Positions 1-12,110 of a stretch of DNA of 64,000 nucleotides are shown here, piece by piece. Every line of letters starts with the position of its first letter. Position 1 is the first letter of the stretch. The notes below the pieces were generated by a model. The model saw only the letters and a list, made by a program, of their open reading frames with translations. It was not told where the DNA came from and did not search any database. A program made the translations under genes and the position numbers. This stretch comes from Candidatus Pacearchaeota archaeon (GTDB lineage Archaea > Nanobdellota > Nanobdellia > Pacearchaeales > GW2011-AR1): the NCBI GenBank assembly GCA_018303945.1, contig JAGVXD010000001.1, positions 2,877 to 66,876 of the forward strand, in the 5' to 3' direction.

Positions 1-584
1 ATTCTAGCATTGTTCACGATTTCACCAAGAATGGCGTAATCTAACTTGTCTAATTGATTATTAACTAACTCTCCAGCAAACATAGTTGGTTCAGATATGC
101 GATTTGTAAAGTACATCTTAGGATATTGCTTAACATCAATAAGAATTTGACCTTCTTCTTGTACAATTATTTTATTGAATTCTGAAATAAGTTCATTCTT
201 CAGTTCAAAAAATTCATAATCATTCTTAGCAAATATTCCAAAAATAAGCTCCCAATTTCCTGAACATTCACCCATCCAATATACTTTTCCTGAAGATTTG
301 AGATATTTGAACAACCTATCCTTTTCTTCAGGAATGTTTCTTAATTTTAAATAAATTTTATATATTTTATGACCCATTTTGTGAGGATTTATTGCTGTTT
401 GAAAACTAGTAATTATTCCTTCTTTTACTAGATTGTTTATTCTATAGTCCACTGATTGTCTCGATTTTCTTACTTTTCTTGCTAATATTGTAGATGCAAT
501 TCTGCAATTTTTATCTAACTCAGATAAGATAGTTAGATCTGCTTTATCAAGCTTAATTCTATTAATCTCTACCATATTTAGCAT
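1..584 (-). CDS. Lrp/AsnC-family transcriptional regulator (HTH plus RAM-like domain, possibly tandem), start at 584 (or 575); ORF runs off the window start
   Basis: Manual minus-strand translation from ATG at 584 gives MLNMVEINRIKLDKADLTILSELDKNCRIASTILARKVRKSRQSVDYRINNLVKEGIITSF... with no stop down to position 1. A second HTH-like segment (LDKLDYAILGEIVNNAR) lies at the window edge. It is absent from the ORF track because it is open at the edge. Confidence 0.5.
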   Translation of the reverse strand, partial: MLNMVEINRIKLDKADLTILSELDKNCRIASTILARKVRKSRQSVDYRINNLVKEGIITSFQTAINPHKMGHKIYKIYLKLRNIPEEKDRLFKYLKSSGKVYWMGECSGNWELIFGIFAKNDYEFFELKNELISEFNKIIVQEEGQILIDVKQYPKMYFTNRISEPTMFAGELVNNQLDKLDYAILGEIVNNAR

Positions 585-689
585 AAAATATACTATGCTT
601 ATAAATATTGTCATTTATGCTCAAAAATTGATAAATACTTTATTATATACAATTTACCATTATATAGTAAGAATAAAAGGAAAAACAAG

Positions 690-2030
690 ATGACAACAAA
701 AACAAAACAAGAAGTTGAAGAAATCATAAGGAAATATGAATCTATGATTCCTGCAATATATGAAGCAGGAGCATTTCCTGAAGATTTTAAGCTTCAACCA
801 AGTGACTGGGCATTAAAAGAAGAAGTTGTACAAAGACCAGCTTTAGAAACGCTAGTTGGAGGAAAGCAAACTTCAATCAGACCTATCTCAACTATGGACT
901 TAGAATTCTTATCAAACTCTACAGTCCAAAAAGCAAAGAATGGAGAAGTAAATCTTGTAAATAATTATCCTTGTGGACTTAAGTGTCCAGGATGTTTCTC
1001 TCAAGAAGGAGTATATGGAGATAAATCAAATTTGATGACATGGCAAGAAGTTATGGGAGTAGTTGATGATGCAAGAACAATCGGGTTGCAAGGTACTAAA
1101 TTCTTAGGTCCTGGAGAATTATTTCAGAATCCTGACCTTTTTGATATTCTTGATGCATTTGAAGAGAGAGGGTTACCGATAAGTATCTTTACCAAAGGAG
1201 CTGAATTAGGTAATGATGAATTGGCAATAAGGAATTATGGTCATCTTGGAGTAAAATCTGCTAAAGAGCTAGTAGAAAAAGTATCTCAATACGATTGTGT
1301 AAGAATATTGCTTGGCTTCAATTCATTATTCTCAGATAGGCAGGATAAAATGGTTGGTTCATCCACAATGACAAGAGACTATCAGGTTAATAATGGTACT
1401 TTCACAAACAGAGGAGTCTCAAATTACACTGAAAAAAGAAATCTAGCACTAGTTAATTTAGTTGAAGCTGGTTTCAACGATCCAAGTAAAGGACAGAGAT
1501 TATCATTAATAGCAGCACCAGTTGGTCTTGAGCAGATTGACGAGATTCCAACAATGTACTTATGGGCTGCAAAAAGAAATATTCCTTTGGTGATAGCTCC
1601 AACCATGGAGTCTGGACCAAAATCTATTGGATTAAGTGCTCAAAATAAAAGAATTGACCCTAATCATGAAATGCTAGTTCAGTTGATGACTGAAGTTTAT
1701 GATACAGCCATACAAAATGGAGTTATGAGCTTAGAACAGATGAGAAGAGAAGAGGTTTCAGCTTACATGGGAACATCCCCATGCAATCAAGTTGCAAACG
1801 GATTATTCTTAAGGCTAAATGGAAGAATTCAGATGTGCCCTGGAAGAAGCGATTCAACAGCAATATATGGGAATACTCATGAAACACCATTAGCAGAAAT
1901 ATGGGAAAATAGTCCAAATTACAGATTAGGAGCTAGAACAAATAACTGGTGCACGGCAAAGACAGAAGGAATGCCTAAGAATGTTCAAAGAGAGGTACTC
2001 AAGATACTTGAGGAAAAATATGGAAAGTAA
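690..2030 (+). CDS. Radical SAM enzyme with ~90-aa N-terminal extension and SPASM/twitch-like C-terminal domain
   Basis: CxxxCxxC at C95/C99/C102 (NYPCGLKCPGCF), glycine-rich GPGELF motif, C-terminal cysteines (SPCNQVANG...QMCPGRS...NWCTAK) and a GNTHETPLAEIWENSP motif typical of SPASM C-termini. RBS-like aaaggaaaaa precedes the ATG. Confidence 0.7.
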   Translation: MTTKTKQEVEEIIRKYESMIPAIYEAGAFPEDFKLQPSDWALKEEVVQRPALETLVGGKQTSIRPISTMDLEFLSNSTVQKAKNGEVNLVNNYPCGLKCPGCFSQEGVYGDKSNLMTWQEVMGVVDDARTIGLQGTKFLGPGELFQNPDLFDILDAFEERGLPISIFTKGAELGNDELAIRNYGHLGVKSAKELVEKVSQYDCVRILLGFNSLFSDRQDKMVGSSTMTRDYQVNNGTFTNRGVSNYTEKRNLALVNLVEAGFNDPSKGQRLSLIAAPVGLEQIDEIPTMYLWAAKRNIPLVIAPTMESGPKSIGLSAQNKRIDPNHEMLVQLMTEVYDTAIQNGVMSLEQMRREEVSAYMGTSPCNQVANGLFLRLNGRIQMCPGRSDSTAIYGNTHETPLAEIWENSPNYRLGARTNNWCTAKTEGMPKNVQREVLKILEEKYGK

Positions 2031-2457
2031 ACAATCTCTTGAAATTCTCATTGGTGACGATATGTTTTTGATGCCTGTTGATGCAATGATGGCACAAAAT
2101 CAATACTTAGAACCATTAAAAGAAAGAATTCCAGGATATGATGTTCGATTGTCATATGCTTCAACTCCAGAGGAAATGTTGACTGAAGCTTCAAGAGGAA
2201 CATATGATGTAATTATATCTGACTTAGATTATGGCACAACTGGAAGAATGGGAACTGAAGGGTTTGATGTGTGTAATGGAGTCAATAAAATGAATCTCTC
2301 AAAGAAGCCTTTCCTTGTCTTGTGTACATCAAGAGATGATGTTCAGAAGCAAATTAAGAAACTTCTTTATGAAGGTAAAATAGGTGCAGTAGTAACTCCT
2401 AAAAGTAAACATAAGTTTAATGCTTTAGCAGAATTTCTTGAAGAAAAGTATATTTAA
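2020..2457 (+). CDS. Stand-alone CheY-like receiver (REC) domain protein
   Basis: LEILIGDD (acidic pair), YDVIISDLDY (phospho-acceptor Asp), LVLCTS (Thr/Ser), GAVVTPKSK (conserved Lys). The track start at 1981 lies inside the upstream ORF; ATG at 2020 with aggaaaaa upstream is the more plausible start. It overlaps the rSAM stop by 11 nt. Confidence 0.55.
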   Translation: MESKQSLEILIGDDMFLMPVDAMMAQNQYLEPLKERIPGYDVRLSYASTPEEMLTEASRGTYDVIISDLDYGTTGRMGTEGFDVCNGVNKMNLSKKPFLVLCTSRDDVQKQIKKLLYEGKIGAVVTPKSKHKFNALAEFLEEKYI

Positions 2458-2581
2458 ATATAATATCTTTATAATTATATTATGGGTTGTTCAAATTGTT
2501 TTTCTAATAGAAATTTTTGTTCTACCCATAAGTGAATCTGTTTTAGTTCCTTTACAGTTGTATGTGTTGTTAAGGGCAAAT

Positions 2582-2589
2582 TTTAAATA
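2582..2589 (+). promoter_or_regulatory. TATA-box-like element (tttaaata) ~25 nt upstream of the methyltransferase ATG; likely promoter of the R-M/pAgo operon (leaderless or short leader)
   Basis: A/T-rich 153-bp spacer 2458-2610; tttaaata is centred ~25 bp before the ATG at 2611. Confidence 0.3.
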
Positions 2590-2610
2590 AGTGATTATTT
2601 TAGGATTAAC

Positions 2611-3678
2611 ATGAAAAAAGAGCTAAACGTCGTTGACTTATTTTGTGGTGCTGGAGGGTTGAGTTTTGGATTTGCAAAGGCAGGTTTTAACATAATTTTG
2701 GGAGTTGATAATGATAAAGATTCTAAAGAGACTTTCTTAAAAAATCATCCAGACTCTCAATACTTACTAAAAGATATTCGGTCAGTCTCAAAAGATGAAA
2801 TTTTAAGCTTAATTGGTGATAAAAAAATTGACCTTTTGATTGGTGGACCACCTTGTCAAGGATTCAGTGTATCTGGAAAAAGAGTTTACATGGATTCAAG
2901 AAATTCTCTCTATCTTGAGTTTTTCAGAATTTTAGATATTTTAAAACCAAACCACGCTCTTATTGAAAATGTGCCAGGTCTAAAAGGTCTTTTTGAAGGA
3001 AGGGCTTTAAAAAGTATTCTTGAAGAATTTTCAAAGAGAGGTTACAAAACAAACCATTCTATTTTAAAAGCAGATGAATATGGAGTCCCTCAAGTTAGAA
3101 AAAGAATAATCATAGTAGCCTCAAAAAAAGGAGAATTTGAATTTCCATTGCCATTAAGTACACAGGTCACTTTGGGTGATGCTATAAACGACCTACCTAT
3201 TTTAGAAGACTCAATTGAAGAAGACCAGTATATTTCTAAACCTAAAAATGAATATCAAAATTTGATGCGAATTAATTCCAATAAAATTCACAATCATATC
3301 GCAAGTAATCATTCAGACAGAACTAAGTCAATAATAGGTCTTGTTCCAGAAGGTGGAAATTACAAAAATCTTCCAAAAGAGCTTAGAAATACAAGAAAAG
3401 TTCATATTGCCTGGACAAGATTGAATAGTTCAAAGCCATCTCTTACCATAGATACAGGTCATAGACATCATTTTCACCCTTGGGCAAATAGAATCCCAAC
3501 TGTAAGAGAATCTGCAAGAATACAATCGTTTCCCGATAACTTTATATTTTATGGTAGCAAGACCTCTCAGTATAGGCAGGTTGGGAATGCAGTTCCCCCA
3601 TTACTTGCGGAGGCTATTGCACAACAACTAAAAAAGTGGATAAACGATGAAAACAAAAAAGATATACAAAACGCCTGA
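2611..3678 (+). CDS. DNA (cytosine-5)-methyltransferase (m5C MTase) 1
   Basis: Motif I FCGAGG, motif IV GGPPCQGFS, motif VI ENVPGL, motif X QVGNAVPP. Confidence 0.9.
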   Translation: MKKELNVVDLFCGAGGLSFGFAKAGFNIILGVDNDKDSKETFLKNHPDSQYLLKDIRSVSKDEILSLIGDKKIDLLIGGPPCQGFSVSGKRVYMDSRNSLYLEFFRILDILKPNHALIENVPGLKGLFEGRALKSILEEFSKRGYKTNHSILKADEYGVPQVRKRIIIVASKKGEFEFPLPLSTQVTLGDAINDLPILEDSIEEDQYISKPKNEYQNLMRINSNKIHNHIASNHSDRTKSIIGLVPEGGNYKNLPKELRNTRKVHIAWTRLNSSKPSLTIDTGHRHHFHPWANRIPTVRESARIQSFPDNFIFYGSKTSQYRQVGNAVPPLLAEAIAQQLKKWINDENKKDIQNA

Positions 3679-5080
3679 TAATTATTATTTCAGATTGCAT
3701 CATATCAGACCTAGATTTAAGAATGATATAGAAAGAATATTACTTATGGTAAGTTCTGCTGTTGCTGAAATGCCCATACAACAAAAAGAACAATTTGATA
3801 AATCACTTAATAAGATAATCAAAGGATTTCCAGGAAATGTTGTAAGAACGGATAAGACTATAAACAATTGGAGGACTGAGATTTCTGCATTATTTAGCCT
3901 TATTTTATATAACTTAGATAATGAAACAGAAGGTCCGAGCGAGATTGCAAAAAGAATGGCAAAAAATCAAGATTTAGTTGAATTTTTTAAGTTATTTTGT
4001 TATTCGTTTCAATATCCTGGAGGACACTTGAAATCTCAAGAAACTAAAAAACTTATTGAGCGAGGAATAAAGTTTAAACCTGCCCATTATATCTTAAAAC
4101 TTCTCTATCAAGCTAACAAGGGAGTAGAAACGCCATTTGGAATTAACAAAGCTGAAGTAACACACTGTATTTTTAATGATACTAGAGTTACTGTAGAGAA
4201 TAAAGACGTAAAAGAAACAATTGATTTAATTAAATCAAACCGAGAACAAGGCTTTGACTATGATTGGAAAGGTGATGTAATACGTTATGCAGGTGATATT
4301 ATGGATTATTTATACTATGCAAATCTCTTAAAAAAGCATGGAGCAAATTATTATTTAAATCCTGTTGAAATGGGAGCAATAATCACATTTGTGGAAAAAG
4401 ACCCGTGGTTCAATTTATACGACAAATTTTATGGAAAAAGTGTTACAAATGAAGAATTGAGAGAAGCTCAAAACAAATGGTTTTACTACGTTTCAAATTT
4501 ATCTGTAAAAGCAAACTTTGAAACAGATGTACTTGCATTCATGGGAATAGATAAAAACAATTATCTGGAAATAGAAAAGAAAGCCACAGCTATTGCAATT
4601 ACTGAATTTAAGAATAAAATAACCGATAAGATACTTAAAACCAAAGAAATAGGAGATGCAGGGGAAAATCTTGCGATAGGTCATGAATGTATGAGGCTAA
4701 AAAACGGTGGTAGAGAAGACCTTATAGGTAAGGTAGTATATCTTCCTAATTATTTGAAGATGGGATATGATATAAGGTCATTTGAATTGGATTCCGACTT
4801 GCGACTTATTGAAGTAAAAACCACTATCAGCAATACAGATATAGATTTTAAATCATTCCATATGACTGAAAACGAATGGAATATTGCGTCAAGTATGGGA
4901 GAAAAGTATTATGTTTATAGAATGGTAATAAGCAGGTCATCTGTAAAACTATTTATAATAAGGAATCCTGTTAATAAGTATAAGAGTGGCATCCTAGACG
5001 TTACTCTTTCAAATGGAGCTCAGGTGAACTTTGATAAAAGGGCAGGTAAATACGAAAAAATTTTAATATGGCAAAAATAA
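3647..5080 (+). CDS. Putative restriction endonuclease; C-terminal DUF3883-like PD-(D/E)xK domain, N-terminal ~330 aa uncharacterised
   Basis: C-terminal GYDIRSFELDSDLRLIEVKTT...FHMTENEWNIA...YYVYRMV matches the DUF3883 / restriction-endonuclease-like pattern. It is flanked by two m5C MTase genes with overlapping ORFs. The true start may be downstream of 3647 (overlap of 32 nt). Confidence 0.55.
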   Translation: MKTKKIYKTPDNYYFRLHHIRPRFKNDIERILLMVSSAVAEMPIQQKEQFDKSLNKIIKGFPGNVVRTDKTINNWRTEISALFSLILYNLDNETEGPSEIAKRMAKNQDLVEFFKLFCYSFQYPGGHLKSQETKKLIERGIKFKPAHYILKLLYQANKGVETPFGINKAEVTHCIFNDTRVTVENKDVKETIDLIKSNREQGFDYDWKGDVIRYAGDIMDYLYYANLLKKHGANYYLNPVEMGAIITFVEKDPWFNLYDKFYGKSVTNEELREAQNKWFYYVSNLSVKANFETDVLAFMGIDKNNYLEIEKKATAIAITEFKNKITDKILKTKEIGDAGENLAIGHECMRLKNGGREDLIGKVVYLPNYLKMGYDIRSFELDSDLRLIEVKTTISNTDIDFKSFHMTENEWNIASSMGEKYYVYRMVISRSSVKLFIIRNPVNKYKSGILDVTLSNGAQVNFDKRAGKYEKILIWQK

Positions 5081-6117
5081 AAATAGCATCGTTATTCTGT
5101 GGATGCGGTGGAACCGAGTTAGGGATAATCGGAGGTTTCAATTTTTTAGGTAAGAAATATTTTAGACACAACACCGAAATCGTATTCGCAAATGATATAG
5201 AAAAGAGTGCTTGTGAAATATACAATGCTAATTTTGAACATGAAAGTGTATGTGCAGATATAAAGAAGATATCTTCTATTGACATACCAGACCATGATGT
5301 TCTTATAGGAGGATTTCCGTGTCAATCTTTTTCAATAGTTGCTCAAAATCCACCAAGACTTGGATTCAAATCTGAAAATGGCAGACTTTTTCTAGAGATG
5401 GTTCGTATTCTTAAAGACAAAAGACCCAAAGCATTTATTGCTGAAAACGTAAGAGGGCTTATTTCAGCAAATAACGGCAAGGCTTTTCCTCTAATTTTAA
5501 AAGAATTTGAAAAGGCAGGTTACAGAGTAGACTATAAACTCGTAGATGCGTCAGGGTTTGGTGTGCCTCAGCGTAGACAGAGAGTTGTAATAATAGGTTA
5601 TAGAAATGACCTAAATATCAGCCCTTCCTTTCCTGAGCCATCAAATAATAATCCTGTTCCTCTAAAGAAAGTAATCTTTGACCATAAAGATGTTGATGAA
5701 AGATATTATTTTAGTGAAAGAGCAATTGAGGGATTACAAAAATCCAATAAATCAATGAACAAAGGTAGATCACAGAATATTGAAGAGCCTTGTGCTACAG
5801 TTACTTCACACCTTGCCAAAGTTAGTTTAAACAGCACAGACCCTGTATTAAAAATAGGTGAAAAATACAGAAGATTTACCCCTAGAGAAGTAGCAAGAAT
5901 ACAATCTTTTCCTGAGTCTTTCAAACTGATAGGGAGCGATTTTCAAAAGTATAAGGCATTAGGAAACGCAATACCTCCTGTATTGTTCTGGCATATAATG
6001 AAAGAAGTAAGTGAAAAGTTATTAGAATTAAAAGAGAGTAATTTAGTAGCTCCTAATATGACTGAACTTTTAACAATAATTACCGCGGACAAAAGTACCC
6101 CTTTATTAAATTGTTAA
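5068..6117 (+). CDS. DNA (cytosine-5)-methyltransferase (m5C MTase) 2
   Basis: FCGCGG, GGFPCQSFS, ENVRGL, QRRQRVVIIG, LGNAIPP. Overlaps the upstream ORF by 13 nt. Confidence 0.9.
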   Translation: MAKIKIASLFCGCGGTELGIIGGFNFLGKKYFRHNTEIVFANDIEKSACEIYNANFEHESVCADIKKISSIDIPDHDVLIGGFPCQSFSIVAQNPPRLGFKSENGRLFLEMVRILKDKRPKAFIAENVRGLISANNGKAFPLILKEFEKAGYRVDYKLVDASGFGVPQRRQRVVIIGYRNDLNISPSFPEPSNNNPVPLKKVIFDHKDVDERYYFSERAIEGLQKSNKSMNKGRSQNIEEPCATVTSHLAKVSLNSTDPVLKIGEKYRRFTPREVARIQSFPESFKLIGSDFQKYKALGNAIPPVLFWHIMKEVSEKLLELKESNLVAPNMTELLTIITADKSTPLLNC

Positions 6118-6129
6118 AGAGAAGATGAA

Positions 6130-6786
6130 ATGACAGCATTTAAACTATCACCATCAACACTAAACCTATTAAAAGAATGTCCAAGATGCTTCTGGCTGTC
6201 TGAACATGAGGTGTGGAGTAGACCAAATGGTATTTTTCCTTCATTGCCTTCAGGAATGGATGGGATTTTAAAAAAACATTTTGATAAGTTTATGGAAAAA
6301 GGTAAACTTCCTCCAGAATTATGTAGTAAATCTGAATGTGAAAATCTTAAACTATTTGATAATAAGGATTTATTGAAAGAATGGAGAAACTCACGAAAAG
6401 GTTTATGGTTTGAAGATAAAGAAGGAAATATACTTCATGGAGGGATAGATAACTTGATGGTAAATAAAGTAAATAATAAACTAATTGTTTTAGATTACAA
6501 AACAAGAGGTTTCCCATTAAAAGATGATACTCATGAACACTATCAAGACCAACTTAATATCTATGCTTGGTTACTTGAGAAATTAGGACACAAAGTAGAA
6601 GACCATGCTTATTTGTTATTCTATCATCCAAAAGAAGTTTTAGAAACTGGAGAGGTTGTTTTTAATACGGATTTGAAAAAGATGAAAATTACACCAGAAC
6701 ATGCAGAGAAACTATTCAACAAAGCAATAAAGATGTTAGGTGAAGACTGTCCTAAACAAACATGTGTATGGTGTGAAAAAGTATAG
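6130..6786 (+). CDS. Cas4-like / RecB-family PD-(D/E)xK nuclease with 4-Cys Fe-S cluster ligands (DUF83-like), stand-alone
   Basis: N-terminal CPRCFW, motif II HGGIDNLMV, motif III LIVLDYKTRG, QxxxY (QDQLNIYAWLL), C-terminal CPKQTCVWC. Confidence 0.7.
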   Translation: MTAFKLSPSTLNLLKECPRCFWLSEHEVWSRPNGIFPSLPSGMDGILKKHFDKFMEKGKLPPELCSKSECENLKLFDNKDLLKEWRNSRKGLWFEDKEGNILHGGIDNLMVNKVNNKLIVLDYKTRGFPLKDDTHEHYQDQLNIYAWLLEKLGHKVEDHAYLLFYHPKEVLETGEVVFNTDLKKMKITPEHAEKLFNKAIKMLGEDCPKQTCVWCEKV

Positions 6787-6826
6787 ATAGTAAATTCTTT
6801 ATAGTGGCTTTTAGTCAATTTTTAGT

Positions 6827-8212
6827 ATGGCTATAACAAACTATGAGGGAGAAAGAGAGGCAACAGTTCATGATTCTAGTAGCTACGGCAAGAAAATAAT
6901 TGAATTTATGGAGTTGAGAGATTATTCTTTAGTAAAAGACTCTGATACAGATGGTATCTTTCAAGATAAGGTCTTTAGAAGACCAAATTTTGATGGTGAA
7001 AAAGAGACTTATGTTGAAATAAAATATACGAATTTAAGTTTATCTGATAAAGACTTCTTGGCAGGGTTTGGGAAATACTTTATTATGTATATGGAAAGCT
7101 CAACCAAATTTTATTTTAAGTTATTTGCTAGAAATCTTAAAAACTTTACAAAATGGAAATCGATATTTGATGATGTTTCCAATAAATATGATGAAGTTAA
7201 AAAGTTTAGAACAAGTATCAAAGAATCTTTATCTGAAGATTTGAAAAATAAGTTTAATTCTTTTGAAATGAGAGATTTCAAAGCGTTTGTGGGACAAATT
7301 GAAATAATAAAGATAGGGTATGAGAAATTAATCCAAAAGATTACAGACTTAAAAGAAAATAAAAAATTTAACAAAAACGAGAATTATCTAACAGAAAAAC
7401 AAAAATTAGTCTATCAAAAAGAGAAAATATTTAGCAATCTTGTTAAAGTTGGGACTTTACCAAAGATATATGTTTATAATCTAAGTCAAGGTCTTGAGCC
7501 AACATTCTGGAATTCTAAAGATATCAATAAGTTTATTACATATAAAGAAAAAGCTATATCAATAAATCCCTTACCAAACGATATAATTAAGAAGTATTGT
7601 CTAGGAAATACACCAGAATATAAAGATATAGACAATATGGGTCTAGATGATGAAGAAAGACTAAATTTGAGAAAAAGGGTTACAGAACTATTTATAATTT
7701 CTAAGGGAGAAAACACTAATTATACTTTTAATAGAAACTTCAATTGTCTTTACGTAATATATGAAAAAGTCACCAGTTCTCCCTTAAAAATGAAGGGTAA
7801 AGAAGGACATAAGAGGAGAATGGTAGCTAGACCATATTTTAAAGATAAGAAACTAAATTTTGTTACTCATAGAGCTTTAAAGTTTAGAGTTACTGATTTT
7901 GATGGAGAGTTATTTATAATTTTTAACTTCTTTAGACTTTTTACAAAAGATGGTAGAGAAATTATAGAAGGTGAAAGTGCAAAAAGATTAAATTATGGTT
8001 TTAGACCAACTAATAGTTCAAATCTACAAGAGCATAGTGTCTTGGACTTTCTTATTACACTTTTAGATTTGAAAACAAAAACTCTAAATCATCAGAATTT
8101 CATAGCAACTAAATCCTTAGAGTTAGAATCTCCTTGTAAGGCATCTGAAATAGAATTATTTGATGAATCACCAAACTATGAACTAATGGATGAATCGGAG
8201 GATGAAGAATGA
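6827..8212 (+). CDS. Short-pAgo partner protein: N-terminal PD-(D/E)xK-like (Mrr/DREN-like) nuclease motif plus ~330-aa region inferred to be APAZ
   Basis: N-terminal EFMEL...DSDTDGIF...ETYVEIKYT (E-x-D-x21-ExK). 461 aa. Its stop overlaps the pAgo start (ATGA at 8209-8212). APAZ is inferred from gene context and was not confirmed. Confidence 0.45.
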   Translation: MAITNYEGEREATVHDSSSYGKKIIEFMELRDYSLVKDSDTDGIFQDKVFRRPNFDGEKETYVEIKYTNLSLSDKDFLAGFGKYFIMYMESSTKFYFKLFARNLKNFTKWKSIFDDVSNKYDEVKKFRTSIKESLSEDLKNKFNSFEMRDFKAFVGQIEIIKIGYEKLIQKITDLKENKKFNKNENYLTEKQKLVYQKEKIFSNLVKVGTLPKIYVYNLSQGLEPTFWNSKDINKFITYKEKAISINPLPNDIIKKYCLGNTPEYKDIDNMGLDDEERLNLRKRVTELFIISKGENTNYTFNRNFNCLYVIYEKVTSSPLKMKGKEGHKRRMVARPYFKDKKLNFVTHRALKFRVTDFDGELFIIFNFFRLFTKDGREIIEGESAKRLNYGFRPTNSSNLQEHSVLDFLITLLDLKTKTLNHQNFIATKSLELESPCKASEIELFDESPNYELMDESEDEE

Positions 8213-9618
8213 GTAAAGATTTTGAAGTTATTTATATCCCCGAACCACAACTTCTTTTTAATAAAAACAAACAGGCATATAATCCTTGTGTAGGCTTAAT
8301 AAAACATGGTCCTAGATTTTCTGGAAACAAAGAAGTAGATTACAAGGAGTTTAGAATAGGTATTATTGGTTCTGATAAAAGTATTTCTCAGGCTAAGGAT
8401 TTATTTGAACAGTTTCAATTTAAGATATCTCCTAAAAAAGAGGTAAAACCATGGAGAATTCCATTCCCTGGACTAAATAAAGAATCTCCATTAAATTTCT
8501 CTTTTGTCTTTAACCCAGAATGGGAGGGAGAGATAACTTCTAATGAAATGGTTTATTTAAAAGATAAAAGTAAGGGGAAAGAAAGAAATGAGGAGCTACT
8601 TAGTATAATTAAGGATAGAATGAAAAAAATATATCATAGCGAAAGCCCACCAGACATGATTTTAATAAGTATCCCCGAAGAATTATTTACTATTTTTAGT
8701 ACTTCTGGGTCAGATAAACCAAATATTAAATTAGATGATGATGATTTTCATAACCGAATTAAAATTCTAGCTATGGAATTAAAAATGCCAACACAACTAA
8801 TAAGACCTGAAACACTAAAACAAGATAAGACACAAGAACTTTTCTTGATTGCTTGGAATTTGGTAGTTGGAATCTTATATAAATGTCAAAGAGGACATCC
8901 TTGGAAATTAACTTATTTAGAAGAAGATACTTGTTACGTAGGAATATCATTTTTTAGAGAAAAGACAAAGAAAACAATAAGAGCTAGCCTTGCACAAATA
9001 TTCTTAGATACTGGTGAGAGTTTTGTTCTTAGAGGAGATTCATTTAAGTGGGTTAATAAAAAAAATCCAAACAGCCCACATTTATCAAAGGAGAGTTCAA
9101 AAGATATAATTGAATTGGTATTAAAACACTACAAAAGTGTTAGAAAAGGCAAGAATCCAACCAGGTTAGTTATCCATAAAAGCTCAGGATATTGGGAAGA
9201 AGAATTGGAAGGTTTTATTGAAGCATCTAAAGAAATTAAAAAGAGAGATTTTGTTACAATTTTAGATTCCGATGTGAAATTTTTTACTTCTAACAAATAC
9301 CCCGTTTTAAGAGGGACTTTGATAACAAACAAAGATACTAATTTTCTTTATACAACTGGCTTTGTTCCTACACTAGGAACTTATCCAGGGATAACTACTC
9401 CAAGACCTCTATCGATTAAATCTTATAACTTAGACTCGGATATAAAGAAGGTTTGTGAGGAGATATTATCTTTTACCAAATTAGATTGGAATAACACCTT
9501 TGTTTATAGTAAATTCCCTGTAACAATATCTGTTTCAAGAAAAGTAGGGAATATTATGGCTGAGACTGTAGCTCAAAATATTGAAGAATTAGACCCCCAT
9601 TATTTCTATTATATGTAG
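8209..9618 (+). CDS. Short prokaryotic Argonaute (MID-PIWI), catalytically degenerate PIWI
   Basis: PIWI-like blocks CYVGISFF (in place of GxDVxH), PTRLVIHKSSG (in place of iiYRDG), DFVTILDSDVKFF, GTLITNKDTNFLYTTGFVPTLGTYPGITTPRPLSI (matches the GTvvD...FyL...GTsrPthY block). The catalytic D positions appear to be S/S/T. 469 aa. Confidence 0.75.
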   Translation: MSKDFEVIYIPEPQLLFNKNKQAYNPCVGLIKHGPRFSGNKEVDYKEFRIGIIGSDKSISQAKDLFEQFQFKISPKKEVKPWRIPFPGLNKESPLNFSFVFNPEWEGEITSNEMVYLKDKSKGKERNEELLSIIKDRMKKIYHSESPPDMILISIPEELFTIFSTSGSDKPNIKLDDDDFHNRIKILAMELKMPTQLIRPETLKQDKTQELFLIAWNLVVGILYKCQRGHPWKLTYLEEDTCYVGISFFREKTKKTIRASLAQIFLDTGESFVLRGDSFKWVNKKNPNSPHLSKESSKDIIELVLKHYKSVRKGKNPTRLVIHKSSGYWEEELEGFIEASKEIKKRDFVTILDSDVKFFTSNKYPVLRGTLITNKDTNFLYTTGFVPTLGTYPGITTPRPLSIKSYNLDSDIKKVCEEILSFTKLDWNNTFVYSKFPVTISVSRKVGNIMAETVAQNIEELDPHYFYYM

Positions 9619-9694
9619 TTAGAATAACTTCCAAACTAGGCTATAAACCATGTGTAAAACACCTGAGAGCCCAGCTACAATCAAAGAACTACAT

Positions 9695-9853
9695 TCAAAT
9701 GTATAATTTTGGGACGACTGTAAGAACTTCAATCTTAACTTCAACAATTGTTCCAGGCTTTAAACTATCTTCAATTAGACGAGGAATTACGATTATAGCT
9801 TGGTTTCCGTGTTTTGCGATTCGTTTAGTTATCGTAAAGCATTTTTTCTCCAT
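9695..9853 (-). CDS. Small AbrB/MazE (SpoVT_AbrB)-like swapped-hairpin protein, 52 aa; not in ORF track
   Basis: Manual translation: MEKKCFTITKRIAKHGNQAIIVIPRLIEDSLKPGTIVEVKIEVLTVVPKLYI. It starts 1 nt after the stop of the 9855..10679 gene. Confidence 0.45.
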   Translation of the reverse strand: MEKKCFTITKRIAKHGNQAIIVIPRLIEDSLKPGTIVEVKIEVLTVVPKLYI

Positions 9854-9854
9854 T

Positions 9855-10679
9855 TTATTTTACACCTCTAATAATCTTTTTTACAAAACTCATTGAAATA
9901 GAATCGCCTGTATCATTAAATTTGACTGCTTTCTTTTCTTCATCAGACAATGTTGACCTAAGATATTCGTTCCATGCTTGAAGTTTTGATTCATCTCCTA
10001 GAAAGTCGCTTTCAAGAAGGTTTTTGGTTGTATAATTAAATATTCCATCATAAACAATTTCAATATCTCTAAATCCTGCTTCTTTTAATTGCTTGAATAT
10101 ATCTGTTTCATGGGAAAAATGTCTATTTTCAACAAAACTATCAAAACCTGCTAATTCGTCTTTCTTTTTCACTAATTCTCTAAAGCAACGGCTCAGTTCT
10201 GGTGTTTGACCAAAAGATTCCCAAATATATATTTCACCATGTTCTTTCAAGGCATTATAGGCATTTTGAATAATTCTCGGTTGGTCATTCTTTGGTACTT
10301 CATGTAAACCCATTTTAATAACTGCCTTGTCAAGAATATTTTCAAGGGATAGACATCTAGCATCTTCTACTCTCTTTTGGACTGCGTATCCTTGAAGTTC
10401 ATATGGAGCAAGATACGAAGTAGATTTGTTTATTTGCTCTTCATATGCATCAGTCAAAATAACTCGGACATAGAGATTGTTTTTAGAGCAATAGTCTAAT
10501 ACCTTTCTAGATACCGCACCATACCCAGACATAATATCGCCCATAGTCATTCCGTTTTTCAGATTCATTGACTCTATCAATTTATCAAAGGCTTCATCCT
10601 CGTTTCCATGAGCTTTGCTAAAGTCAACATTTCTTTGATTCCATCCTTGATGTTTTGTCTTCTGTTCCATATTAGTCAC
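9855..10679 (-). CDS. Class I SAM-dependent methyltransferase (small-molecule/protein MTase-like)
   Basis: Glycine-rich SAM motif DIMSGYGAV followed by an acidic loop. No DNA MTase motifs. Confidence 0.45.
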   Translation of the reverse strand: MTNMEQKTKHQGWNQRNVDFSKAHGNEDEAFDKLIESMNLKNGMTMGDIMSGYGAVSRKVLDYCSKNNLYVRVILTDAYEEQINKSTSYLAPYELQGYAVQKRVEDARCLSLENILDKAVIKMGLHEVPKNDQPRIIQNAYNALKEHGEIYIWESFGQTPELSRCFRELVKKKDELAGFDSFVENRHFSHETDIFKQLKEAGFRDIEIVYDGIFNYTTKNLLESDFLGDESKLQAWNEYLRSTLSDEEKKAVKFNDTGDSISMSFVKKIIRGVK

Positions 10680-10764
10680 TTAATAGTAATTACAGAAAAC
10701 AACATATAAAGCATGTGTGTCTAATAATAGACAACTTTAAATATTGCATAAACGTTAATCTTCT

Positions 10765-11469
10765 ATGGAGGATATGATACTGACAGACCTCGGCTTAACT
10801 GAAGCAGAATCCAAGATTTACTTTGCCGTACTCAAATTGAAAACTTGTACGGTTCGAGATATAACAAAGGAATGTGGTTTTCATAGAACAAACATCTATG
10901 ATATACTAGAACAATTAAGAGAAAAAGGTCTTATTTCAATACATAAAGAAGGAAAGACAACAAGGTATAGTGCATCTGACCCGAATAATCTATATGAATT
11001 ATTGAGAGAGAAAAAGGAGCTCCTGGATTCAATTTTTCCATCATTAGAGAAGTTTTACAAATCATCTTCTGATGAAATAAAAGTCGAAGTCTTCAAAGGT
11101 GATGAAGGTATGAAATCCGCATGGAGAGATATGATTCGTGAAGGAAAGCCACTTTATGGTTTCGGGATTAAAGGTCAACTAAGAGAAAAATTACCCGTGT
11201 TTGCTGAACAATGGCTAAGAGATGTGAAAAATAAGAAAATACCTTATTATGGCATTTATACAAAAAGAGGAAATCTCCCATCATATTACACACAAGTTAA
11301 ATTCGTTTCAGAGGAATTATCTAGCCCAGTTGCTACTTTTATCTATGGGGATAAGATAAATATAAACATCTGGGATCCAACACTAGTTTGCATTGTAATT
11401 AAATCAAAGCTAGTAGCTGAAATGTATAAGAAACATTTTGACTTATTATGGAAGATAGCTAAAAAGTGA
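10765..11469 (+). CDS. TrmB-family transcriptional regulator (archaeal sugar-responsive regulator family)
   Basis: N-terminal winged HTH LGLTEAESKIYFAVLKLKTCTVRDITKECGFHRTNIYDILEQLREKGLI typical of TrmB. Confidence 0.6.
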   Translation: MEDMILTDLGLTEAESKIYFAVLKLKTCTVRDITKECGFHRTNIYDILEQLREKGLISIHKEGKTTRYSASDPNNLYELLREKKELLDSIFPSLEKFYKSSSDEIKVEVFKGDEGMKSAWRDMIREGKPLYGFGIKGQLREKLPVFAEQWLRDVKNKKIPYYGIYTKRGNLPSYYTQVKFVSEELSSPVATFIYGDKININIWDPTLVCIVIKSKLVAEMYKKHFDLLWKIAKK

Positions 11470-11786
11470 ATATAAAAAAACCTTATCATTCTAACCAATA
11501 ACAGGCTAAATAAAAAAGTTATTAGTATTGTGTGGATAAATCACCCAATTGATTTAAGATGTGTTTTTCCCAATAGAAACGTCTTATAACCAACTATTCT
11601 TAACAAGACACAGATAAATGCCTTATCCACACAAAAATACTTAAATGTGATTCTCTATAGGCTATCTAAGTAATCCTAATAAAAAAATGATATACAAAGA
11701 CTTAAAAGACAAATATTATTCTAAATCATTGAGCGTAAGCTTAGCGTTACCTTTAAACCGCAAGGTTATAGAGGTATCGTTTTCAT

Positions 11787-11858
11787 GGCGGATGTAGTTT
11801 AACGGTAGAACAACGGACTGTGGCTCCGTAGACGAGGGTTCGACTCCCTCCTCCCGCT
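11787..11858 (+). tRNA. Putative tRNA-His (anticodon GTG) with G at -1; imperfect acceptor stem; possible pseudo-tRNA
   Basis: Anticodon arm ACGGA-CTGTGGC-TCCGT, T-arm GAGGG-TTCGACT-CCCTC, D-arm GTTT/AAGC-like. The acceptor stem GCGGATG/CTCCCGC has A-C and T-T mismatches. Confidence 0.4.
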
Positions 11859-12110
11859 CTTTATATTATGTCGGGAACCACCGCACCCTAAAGGGTGCGG
11901 TAAACGCAAGGACTTTTTGATGTTGATGAAATTGACACTTGATTACGGGAGAATTGCCTTTAGTCTGCATGGGAAAGTTCCGGCGGACATTTATTTTGCA
12001 TTCGGAAAATTATTTTAAAGGTTGTGACAAATGTCTATGTCCTGTAACATTACTTAAATCATCGCAAGCTTTTTAAACCGAGTTTTGCTTCACTCTTCGT
12101 TAATAGTACC

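Follow-up and report, generated by a model that had tools for sequence, protein, structure and literature searches.

We identified a radical S-adenosylmethionine (SAM) enzyme gene, with an overlapping receiver gene and a divergent regulator gene, at the start of a 64,000-nucleotide stretch of archaeal DNA (G000:C8:2877-66876; hereafter the window). With slightly better than even confidence, we interpret positions 1-2457 as a single self-contained cassette that consists of the regulator, a control region, the radical SAM (rSAM) gene and the receiver gene. On balance, we lean towards a function as an Lrp-switched, receiver-modulated rSAM enzyme that acts on a substrate common to archaea and bacteria.

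The 5' part of a tandem (double) Lrp/AsnC-type regulator gene occupies positions 1-575 on the reverse strand (full gene of 326 aa, G000:C8:2474-3451). A 114-bp control region (576-689), conserved in an alignment of 31 loci, separates it from the rSAM gene (690-2030, forward strand), which is followed by the receiver gene (2020-2457, forward strand). An earlier note on this DNA had described an rSAM gene at 690-2030 with a CxxxCxxC motif, C-terminal cysteines and an AEIWENSP stretch, an 11-nt overlap with the next gene, a divergent Lrp-like gene, and restriction-modification (R-M) and Argonaute genes downstream. All of these features are present as described.

The source assembly comprises 0.80 Mb in 22 contigs and is 87% complete, G+C content is about 33%, and the closest relatives of the studied genes carry the labels Woesearchaeota or Nanoarchaeota. 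The host, an archaeon of DPANN type, occurs in metagenomes from groundwater and soil (15 DNA runs).

The radical SAM enzyme

The rSAM gene encodes a 446-aa protein with cysteines at residues 95, 99, 102, 203, 365, 383 and 421. Its open reading frame (ORF), Pfam matches, alignment and fold model point to a twitch/SPASM-type family. Across a 20-sequence alignment (34-83% identity), 46 columns are invariant, including six of the cysteines (C95/C99/C102 and C365/C383/C421), a KFLGPGE block, D70 and E72. The first three cysteines form a CX3CX2C motif (972-995, forward strand) for the SAM-binding [4Fe-4S] cluster. The protein scores 25.1 bits against Radical_SAM (Pfam accession PF04055), under the cut-off of 29.5, and many homologues carry this domain in precomputed annotation. 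The invariant CX3CX2C motif, together with a model whose fold matches solved radical SAM enzymes, places the protein in the radical SAM superfamily.

A full SPASM domain has seven cysteines and two auxiliary clusters, arranged as CX9-15GX4C ... CX2CX5CX3C ... C, and a twitch domain is a truncated SPASM domain that carries one auxiliary cluster. In the enzyme, the auxiliary-cluster region (1782-1952, forward strand) contains C365-x12-G378-x4-C383 plus C421, with all three cysteines and G378 invariant, and AEIWENSP corresponds to residues 402-409. SPASM (PF13186) matches residues 365-413 with 22.3 bits (cut-off 21.5) over the first 50 positions of the model only, and the CX2CX5CX3C block of the full motif is absent from the C-terminus. 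Because the first of these elements is present and the second is not, we read the C-terminal region as twitch-like, with one auxiliary cluster probably held by three cysteines. The invariant cysteines are correctly placed for a twitch domain and the fold matches MoaA, BlsE, SkfB and BtrN, which makes the protein a candidate twitch enzyme.

The AlphaFold2 model of the enzyme has a mean confidence (pLDDT) of 87.6 and a predicted TM-score of 0.91. Its closest solved folds are ChlB (Z 19.5), SkfB (18.7), CteB (18.5), anSME (18.1), SuiB (17.6) and TigE (17.3), followed by BlsE (16.4), MoaA (16.1), PqqE (15.9), GDGT-MAS (15.6) and viperin (15.1; root-mean-square deviation 3.4 over 243 aligned residues). 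These matches agree with the earlier description of an rSAM enzyme with a SPASM-related C-terminal Fe-S domain. With the twitch/SPASM enzymes ChlB, SkfB, CteB, anSME, SuiB, TigE, BlsE, MoaA and PqqE, the protein shares the CX3CX2C core, a partial TIM barrel and a C-terminal Fe-S domain with a CX12GX4C hairpin, at Z 15.9-19.5 over 255-305 residues. Unlike them, it has only three C-terminal cysteines, no CX2CX5CX3C block and its own N-terminal cap, and it lacks a ribosomally synthesized and post-translationally modified peptide (RiPP) recognition element (RRE), a nearby precursor or sulfatase, and a family assignment at the sequence level.

The subfamily search proposed in the earlier note returned no fitting NCBIfam model, the top score being 30.9 bits against a cut-off of 380 and confined to the cluster loop. 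The ESM Atlas returned only generic radical SAM/SPASM clusters, and a profile search of PDB sequences with the family matched only Cfr (E 3.7e-4). The family thus stands apart from any curated assignment or solved relative, and our literature search, which did not extend to bioRxiv supplements, found no description of it. One described enzyme was considered and set apart: the lipid enzyme Gms is reported (PMC11186832) to combine an N-terminal domain of six helices with a complete SPASM domain that holds two auxiliary clusters, a composition that the protein studied here does not share.

Residues 1-90 (690-959, forward strand) form a family-specific N-terminal cap. It is modelled confidently (pLDDT 86-96) as a long helix, a short helix, three strands and a helix, and carries the motif IPxx(Y/F)..FPxxF....W together with the invariant D70 and E72. 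The earlier note had likened this extension to an RRE. No PqqD/RRE match (PF05402, E<=0.01) was found in these 90 residues, and CteB and SuiB align to the model only after their own RRE, from about residue 57-61 of the model. Because its motif recurs in all clades, in long forms and in fusion proteins, we regard the cap as a family hallmark and not an RRE.

In a HMMER scan of 1.84 billion cluster representatives, 90 clusters held rSAM relatives at E<=1e-30, a number that rises to 239 at E<=1e-10; a word-based search gave 138 relatives. The family is therefore small, as 90 clusters among 1.84 billion indicate. At E<=1e-20, the family profile matches 6 of 200 further genomes from the same phylum and 4 of 200 other Patescibacteria, nearly all genomes with stated quality in this census being at least 90% complete, and the gene is absent from all four searched genomes of the same family.

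A quick IQ-TREE phylogeny was built from 62 rows, namely the window, 6 genome loci and all 55 loci in which an ORF could be called; another seven loci, in which none could be called, were excluded. The enzyme falls in a strongly supported clade of 15, in which, besides the window, 9 rows are archaeal and 5 bacterial (alphaproteobacteria, Micavibrio). Further clades are DPANN-only (16 rows), candidate phyla radiation (CPR) bacteria together with 7 archaea (26 rows) and a short form (4 rows). Identity across domains is 53-62%, and the alphaproteobacterial members stand alone amid unrelated genes, without conserved neighbours. These comparisons identify the gene as a rare accessory gene that has moved between domains.

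Two kinds of extended relative were also observed. Five homologues of about 480-526 aa (P0138, P0141, P0145, P0146 and P0163) have 130-190 extra N-terminal residues without a Pfam match; these extensions mostly begin with a hydrophobic, signal-like segment, which is odd for an oxygen-sensitive cytoplasmic enzyme. In more distant relatives (P0207, P0236, P0149, P0153 and P0154), the fusion partner is either a metallo-beta-lactamase-fold domain (1159-1220 aa) or a C-terminal region of about 330 aa that has no assignment.

The receiver gene

The receiver ORF starts at the ATG at 2020 and overlaps the rSAM gene, whose stop codon lies at 2028-2030, by 11 nt. An upstream ATG at 1981 is not the start, because homologues begin at the methionine of 2020. 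A GAGGA ribosome-binding site (2010-2014, forward strand) is located within the 3' end of the rSAM gene, an arrangement that probably couples translation of the receiver to that of the enzyme.

The gene encodes a 145-aa orphan single-domain receiver (REC)-like protein. Response_reg (PF00072) scores 16.7 bits, under the cut-off of 30.2, and one family member, P0127, carries this domain in precomputed annotation. The AlphaFold2 model (pLDDT 93.2) has a (beta-alpha)5 fold, and the PDB matches listed by Foldseek are almost all receiver domains or receiver-type response regulators, mostly at a query TM-score of 0.56-0.64. D13, D14, D68, T103, K120 and K132 are invariant in nine family members. The fold, acidic pair, phospho-acceptor aspartate, Thr/Ser and lysine of CheY-like receivers are all present, which bears out the earlier identification of a receiver-only protein. 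The protein shares this fold, the acidic pocket, the threonine and the lysine with CheY/Spo0F-type receivers and with the receiver-enzyme regulators CheB, PleD and PorX, and fused receiver-enzyme forms exist in the rSAM family too. It differs from these systems in that the output is a radical SAM enzyme, no kinase was found in the genome and its Pfam score falls short of the cut-off.

Receivers of this family are scarcer than the enzyme: a word search gave seven matches, and only two weak ones were found in 200 genomes. Among 62 rSAM-selected family loci, drawn from GTDB species genomes, the receiver adjoins the enzyme in three: it lies upstream in L004 and L062 (overlapping in L062) and downstream, after a second radical SAM gene, in L052. 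In a metagenome scan we identified 25 receiver-selected loci, eight of which have the enzyme adjacent in either order (L071, L073, L075, L082, L084, L085, L086 and L087). Two others contain a distant rSAM relative (L070) and a C-terminal rSAM fragment (L072), and 10 of the 25 contain an orthologue of the Lrp gene. Counting several loci as the same lineage sampled twice, the receiver and enzyme genes occur side by side in at least eight distinct lineages.

We further identified two bacterial receiver-rSAM fusions, P0218 (584 aa) and P0220 (523 aa, from a Brocadiia metagenome-assembled genome by its source name). Both exceed the Response_reg cut-off (40.0 and 33.2 bits, respectively) and retain the pattern of three plus three cysteines and the N-cap motif. 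Because adjacency recurs in either order and two fusion proteins exist, the rSAM and receiver genes are functionally linked. The receiver is a facultative partner of the enzyme. When the receiver profile was compared with longer proteins, one weak match was obtained, P0273 (298 aa), in which a family receiver follows a helical N-terminal extension. Complex prediction for the enzyme and receiver (score 0.00, mark 0.32) is evidence neither way.

Locus L072 presents a separate case. An intact receiver gene (L072:3998-4450) lies 2.8 kb upstream of a 106-aa C-terminal rSAM fragment (L072:7277-7597, 70% identical), which is set among toxin-antitoxin, leucine-rich repeat and DUF2779 genes. The locus looks like a decayed cassette.

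No HisKA match was found in the 87% complete genome, whose sole HATPase_c match is GyrB, and no second receiver was found. An archaeal two-component census (PMC5847659) reports no two-component systems in finished Nanoarchaeota genomes. It also describes stand-alone receivers as dominant in archaea, stresses protein-protein signalling, and mentions stand-alone receivers that adjoin divergently transcribed DNA-binding genes and a receiver-fused domain that resembles the Lrp ligand-binding domain.

The divergent regulator and its control region

The constant partner of the rSAM enzyme is a divergent regulator. A divergent winged helix-turn-helix (HTH) regulator lies within 1.3 kb upstream in 49 of the 62 rSAM family loci (29 tandem-Lrp, 20 TrmB-like). 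Of the 13 loci that lack one, three offer under 100 bp of sequence on the upstream side, giving 49 of 59 evaluable loci, and four are the alphaproteobacterial loci in which the gene stands alone. The regulators are tandem Lrp proteins in archaea and TrmB-like proteins in CPR bacteria.

In the window, the divergent Lrp-like neighbour reported earlier is real: Pfam detects two stretches each of HTH_24 (66.5 bits) and HTH_AsnC-type (54.1 bits). The ligand-binding RAM domain was not detected by Pfam. The true start is the methionine at 575, as homologues begin MVEI/MVKI. The longest ORF call (start 614) adds 13 residues that are spurious, because this extension overlaps the conserved control region (576-614). 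Tandem-Lrp proteins occur in 122 of 200 genomes of the phylum, in up to 13 copies. Orthologues of the window's regulator (57-93% identity) are divergent to cargo genes in 31 loci.

The control region includes an inverted repeat, AGCATAAA (580-587) and TTTATGCT (614-621), that brackets a TATA-like box (600-607). A second BRE/TATA-like box (639-649) follows about 20 bp downstream of the repeat, and a conserved TAGTAA block (663-671) and a purine-rich, ribosome-binding-like AAAGGA (676-681) lie between it and the rSAM gene. The 70% consensus of the 31 control regions, T.AGCAT...TATAAAT...ATTTATGCT.A...AAA.TTT.ATATA...TA.TAA, is independent of cargo. We interpret these blocks as a putative operator and promoters. 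The repeat matches once in the window against 0.04 expected and is single-copy in the genome. A loosened pattern matches 26 of 401 genomes (25 of 400 others), mostly by chance, and the reversed control matches three; the only true-looking cassettes recovered are those of G000, G171 and G511.

Several kinds of cargo lie under the same control region: rSAM clade I, rSAM clade II, receiver-first operons, small ORFs with the receiver (L077, L083), a more distant rSAM gene (G148) and unrelated ORFs (G186). Like local archaeal Lrp/AsnC regulators of the feast/famine type, the regulator has an AsnC-type HTH, is transcribed divergently from its cargo and has a palindrome that overlies the promoter region. 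Unlike them, it consists of two fused Lrp units (326 aa) from a family expanded in the phylum, and its control region stays constant while the cargo changes.

Paralogous tandem-Lrp regulators (42-46% identity) with a related control region face a radical SAM protein of about 463 aa or clade-III enzymes. In L098, L099 and L100 (G097, G198 and G078), the regulators are 44-46% identical and CGGTCAAAA replaces ATGCTCAAAA in the control region. The N-terminus of the 463-aa protein of these loci resembles B12-binding radical SAM enzymes; for L098, Pfam gives Radical_SAM only. The pairing of Lrp with rSAM genes is a recurrent theme in these archaea.

We considered a siroheme decarboxylase system, in which AhbAB/NirDL-like Lrp proteins would pair with an AhbC/D/NirJ-like enzyme, and rejected it. 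NirJ scores 19.3 bits against a cut-off of 515, NirdL-like_HTH matches one orthologue weakly (E 5.7e-4), and CPR bacteria use a TrmB-like partner.

In CPR loci from several phyla (L023, L027, L037, L038, L041, L043, L061 and L064), the DNA between the TrmB-like gene and the rSAM gene has an operator-like block (TTGTGTCAA..TTCCACAAAAATA) in common and, after it, ATATTGATAAATA and TTGAC boxes. Conservation at the DNA level across phyla suggests that the regulator-enzyme module moved as a unit. In four loci (L038, L041, L043 and L057; partial in L028), a hairpin that is both long and perfect, TCGATAGATGGAAGGTGGGTG ... CCCACCACCCATCTATCGA, precedes the rSAM start by about 60-150 nt. An Rfam search of 12 CPR loci found tRNAs only and no family for this 5' leader hairpin, which may act as an attenuator or riboswitch-like element or represent a small mobile repeat.

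The window itself contains a TrmB-like regulator gene (10765-11469, forward strand) that faces a SAM-dependent methyltransferase gene (9855-10679, reverse strand) beyond the R-M/Argonaute island. This regulator is a full-length homologue (25-34% identity) of the rSAM-partner regulators in CPR bacteria and L060. G186 and G198 likewise have TrmB-like genes at a distance of 2-3 kb from the Lrp gene.

Proposed mechanism and alternative functions

In the mechanism that we favour, the leftward-transcribed tandem-Lrp protein probably binds the AGCATAAA/TTTATGCT repeat around its own TATA box and, in response to a small ligand, would control the rightward bicistron. The enzyme would carry the SAM-cleaving [4Fe-4S] cluster on C95/C99/C102, a single auxiliary cluster on cysteines 365, 383 and 421, and the N-cap. 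By analogy with the superfamily, it is expected to cleave SAM to a 5'-deoxyadenosyl radical that abstracts hydrogen from a substrate near the auxiliary cluster. The receiver most likely gates or tunes the enzyme by protein-protein contact, as in receiver-enzyme fusions. Since no histidine kinase was found, phosphorylation, if any, would come from a small phosphodonor, or the receiver would act without phosphorylation.

Rather than a dedicated precursor peptide, the substrate is most likely a nucleotide, sugar nucleotide, other central metabolite or universally conserved macromolecule. Its presence in both domains is suggested because the same clade works in DPANN archaea and alphaproteobacteria with no peptide gene travelling along. 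Since tiny DPANN and CPR genomes, few of them, keep the enzyme, exchange it across domains and regulate it tightly, it probably gives a specific, conditional benefit. A bolder version of this proposal is speculative and, in our judgement, rather improbable: a receiver-gated rSAM enzyme under a portable Lrp/TrmB switch in kinase-less episymbionts, converting a universal metabolite on demand (for example, a nucleotide docked on the open iron in the three-cysteine auxiliary cluster) into a signalling or antimetabolite product for the symbiont-host relationship. A search of 8.4 million papers and preprints yielded no description of a receiver coupled to a radical SAM enzyme as response-regulator output. 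The regulator, operator and cargo make up a compact three-part system, which could show how kinase-less symbionts use receivers and reveal new radical chemistry.

Several observations weigh against the proposal of a receiver-modulated enzyme with a small-molecule substrate. First, the receiver is missing from 59 of the 62 rSAM-selected loci, and the enzyme therefore does not need it. Second, the fusion receivers only weakly resemble the stand-alone family (hhalign E 1.1e-4 over 113 columns for P0220, E 0.11 for P0218). Third, two lineages (L077 and L083/L080) have the receiver together with the same Lrp orthologue but lack the rSAM enzyme, so the receiver may serve the regulator or other cargo. 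Fourth, at 87% completeness, a kinase could lie in the missing part of the genome. Finally, each of the six solved folds closest to the enzyme belongs to a modifier of peptides or proteins, which makes a small-molecule substrate less likely.

The third of these observations leads to the alternative that we take most seriously, to which we nonetheless attach a low probability: that the receiver acts on the regulator as a co-sensor of the tandem-Lrp switch, with the rSAM enzyme as one of several interchangeable cargos. The Lrp orthologues that accompany the receiver and other cargo in L077 and L083 are 77-78% identical to the window's and have the same control region, and the switch drives the varied cargo listed above (rSAM clades I and II, the distant rSAM gene of G148 and the unrelated ORFs of G186). 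Such a role would also fit the protein-protein signalling that the archaeal census (PMC5847659) presents as typical of stand-alone receivers, some beside divergent DNA-binding genes. However, P0218 and P0220 tie the receiver directly to the enzyme, and the receiver appears to be translationally coupled to the rSAM gene both here and in L062. Weaker receiver-like genes follow TrmB-like regulators too (L089, L091-L093), so no single regulator type is required.

The earlier note had pointed instead to a RiPP maturase. In such a scheme, the N-terminal extension would recognise a precursor encoded elsewhere or too small to see, which we consider quite unlikely. The RiPP or protein-substrate explanation stays alive because the nearest folds (ChlB, SkfB, CteB, anSME, SuiB and TigE; Z 17.3-19.5) are peptide modifiers, and some relatives lie in clusters with multiple rSAM genes (L105, L052, L019 and L059). 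Nevertheless, the cap has no PqqD/RRE match and CteB and SuiB align only past their own RRE. Within 1.5 kb of the enzyme, no conserved ORF of 15-90 aa was found in 68 loci, once frame shadows of the enzyme or regulator are set aside, together with a single group of ORF-like stretches that covers conserved intergenic DNA in 5 CPR loci. The alphaproteobacterial genes stand by themselves amid unrelated ones, and the 53-62% identity between domains speaks for a substrate that is not transferred along with the enzyme. A role as an anaerobic sulfatase-maturating enzyme finds no counterpart in the genome, in which (at 87% completeness) no sulfatase (PF00884) was found.

A link to the adjacent defence island had also been proposed. 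We consider it no more probable than a RiPP maturase that the enzyme serves defence or conflict as a viperin-like maker of a modified nucleotide or other antimetabolite, tightly repressed, which would explain its position beside the island. The patchy occurrence (2-3% of genomes) and cross-domain transfer of the gene, its stand-alone organisation with a repressor-like regulator of its own, and toxin-antitoxin or mobile genes in a few loci (L005, L027, L028, L045, L070 and L072) are in keeping with this idea. The fold also clearly matches viperin (Z 15.1) and MoaA, the GTP 3',8-cyclase (Z 16.1), both of which are stand-alone enzymes with universal nucleotides as substrates. MoaA has a three-cysteine auxiliary cluster whose open iron site binds GTP, and the three-cysteine cluster predicted here recalls it. 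However, MoaA scores only 21.1 bits in NCBIfam (cut-off 231), with no molybdopterin genes nearby, and PADLOC gave no match for the rSAM enzyme or the receiver, viperin included.

The genomic neighbourhood argues against defence as well. The island downstream encodes two 5-methylcytosine (m5C) methylases, a BpuJI-like nuclease, a Cas4-like nuclease, an Argonaute partner (Aga_REase_Archaea in PADLOC) and an Argonaute (pAgo_I). These six proteins have no relatives in the 64 rSAM-scan loci or the 25 receiver loci. Among 140 neighbours within two genes, Pfam identifies mostly housekeeping functions (NusA, PilB/PilC, HU, tRNA synthetases, ribosomal proteins and PPDK), and only about 9 are mobile or defence-like. 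In CPR bacteria the rSAM gene keeps synteny with NusA, which suggests a resident gene, not one that belongs to an island. The island seems to be an unrelated neighbour of the cassette, and its proximity is a poor guide to function.

The earlier note had named two findings that would count against its view, synteny unrelated to defence and assignment to a housekeeping enzyme; the first is what we observe, and the second does not fit a gene present in 2-3% of genomes. A housekeeping cofactor, tRNA or rRNA modification enzyme is in fact very improbable: the 46 invariant columns across 34-83% identity, the mostly housekeeping neighbours and the weak Cfr match are consistent with one, but the gene occurs in only 6 of 200 and 4 of 200 genomes, is absent from four genomes of the same family, has a dedicated regulator and comes near the cut-off of no curated NCBIfam model.

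Cassette boundaries and other radical SAM genes

An AT-rich spacer of 153 bp (2458-2610) lies between the receiver gene and the first m5C methylase gene. We take it as the boundary of the rSAM/receiver operon with the R-M/Argonaute island, and probably also as a transcription boundary. A metagenome contig from run X10 spans 990-2875 with zero differences. Among metagenome contigs across positions 1-12000 of the window (4 runs), all listed joints have sides shorter than 30 nt and are not credible, and thus provide no evidence of the island as a recent insertion.

Contigs from runs X10, X12 and X13 match only about 585-764, which covers the control region and the first 75 nt of the rSAM gene, and diverge on both sides. 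These contigs may come from a related cassette of another organism in the same community.

The only other two radical SAM genes of the genome lie together at G000:C14:13500-23500 (L108) and encode a B12-binding type (477 aa) and a SPASM type (469 aa). They sit in a glycan-synthesis cluster with three DegT-type aminotransferase ORFs, two of which resemble a split gene, and a polysaccharide flippase.

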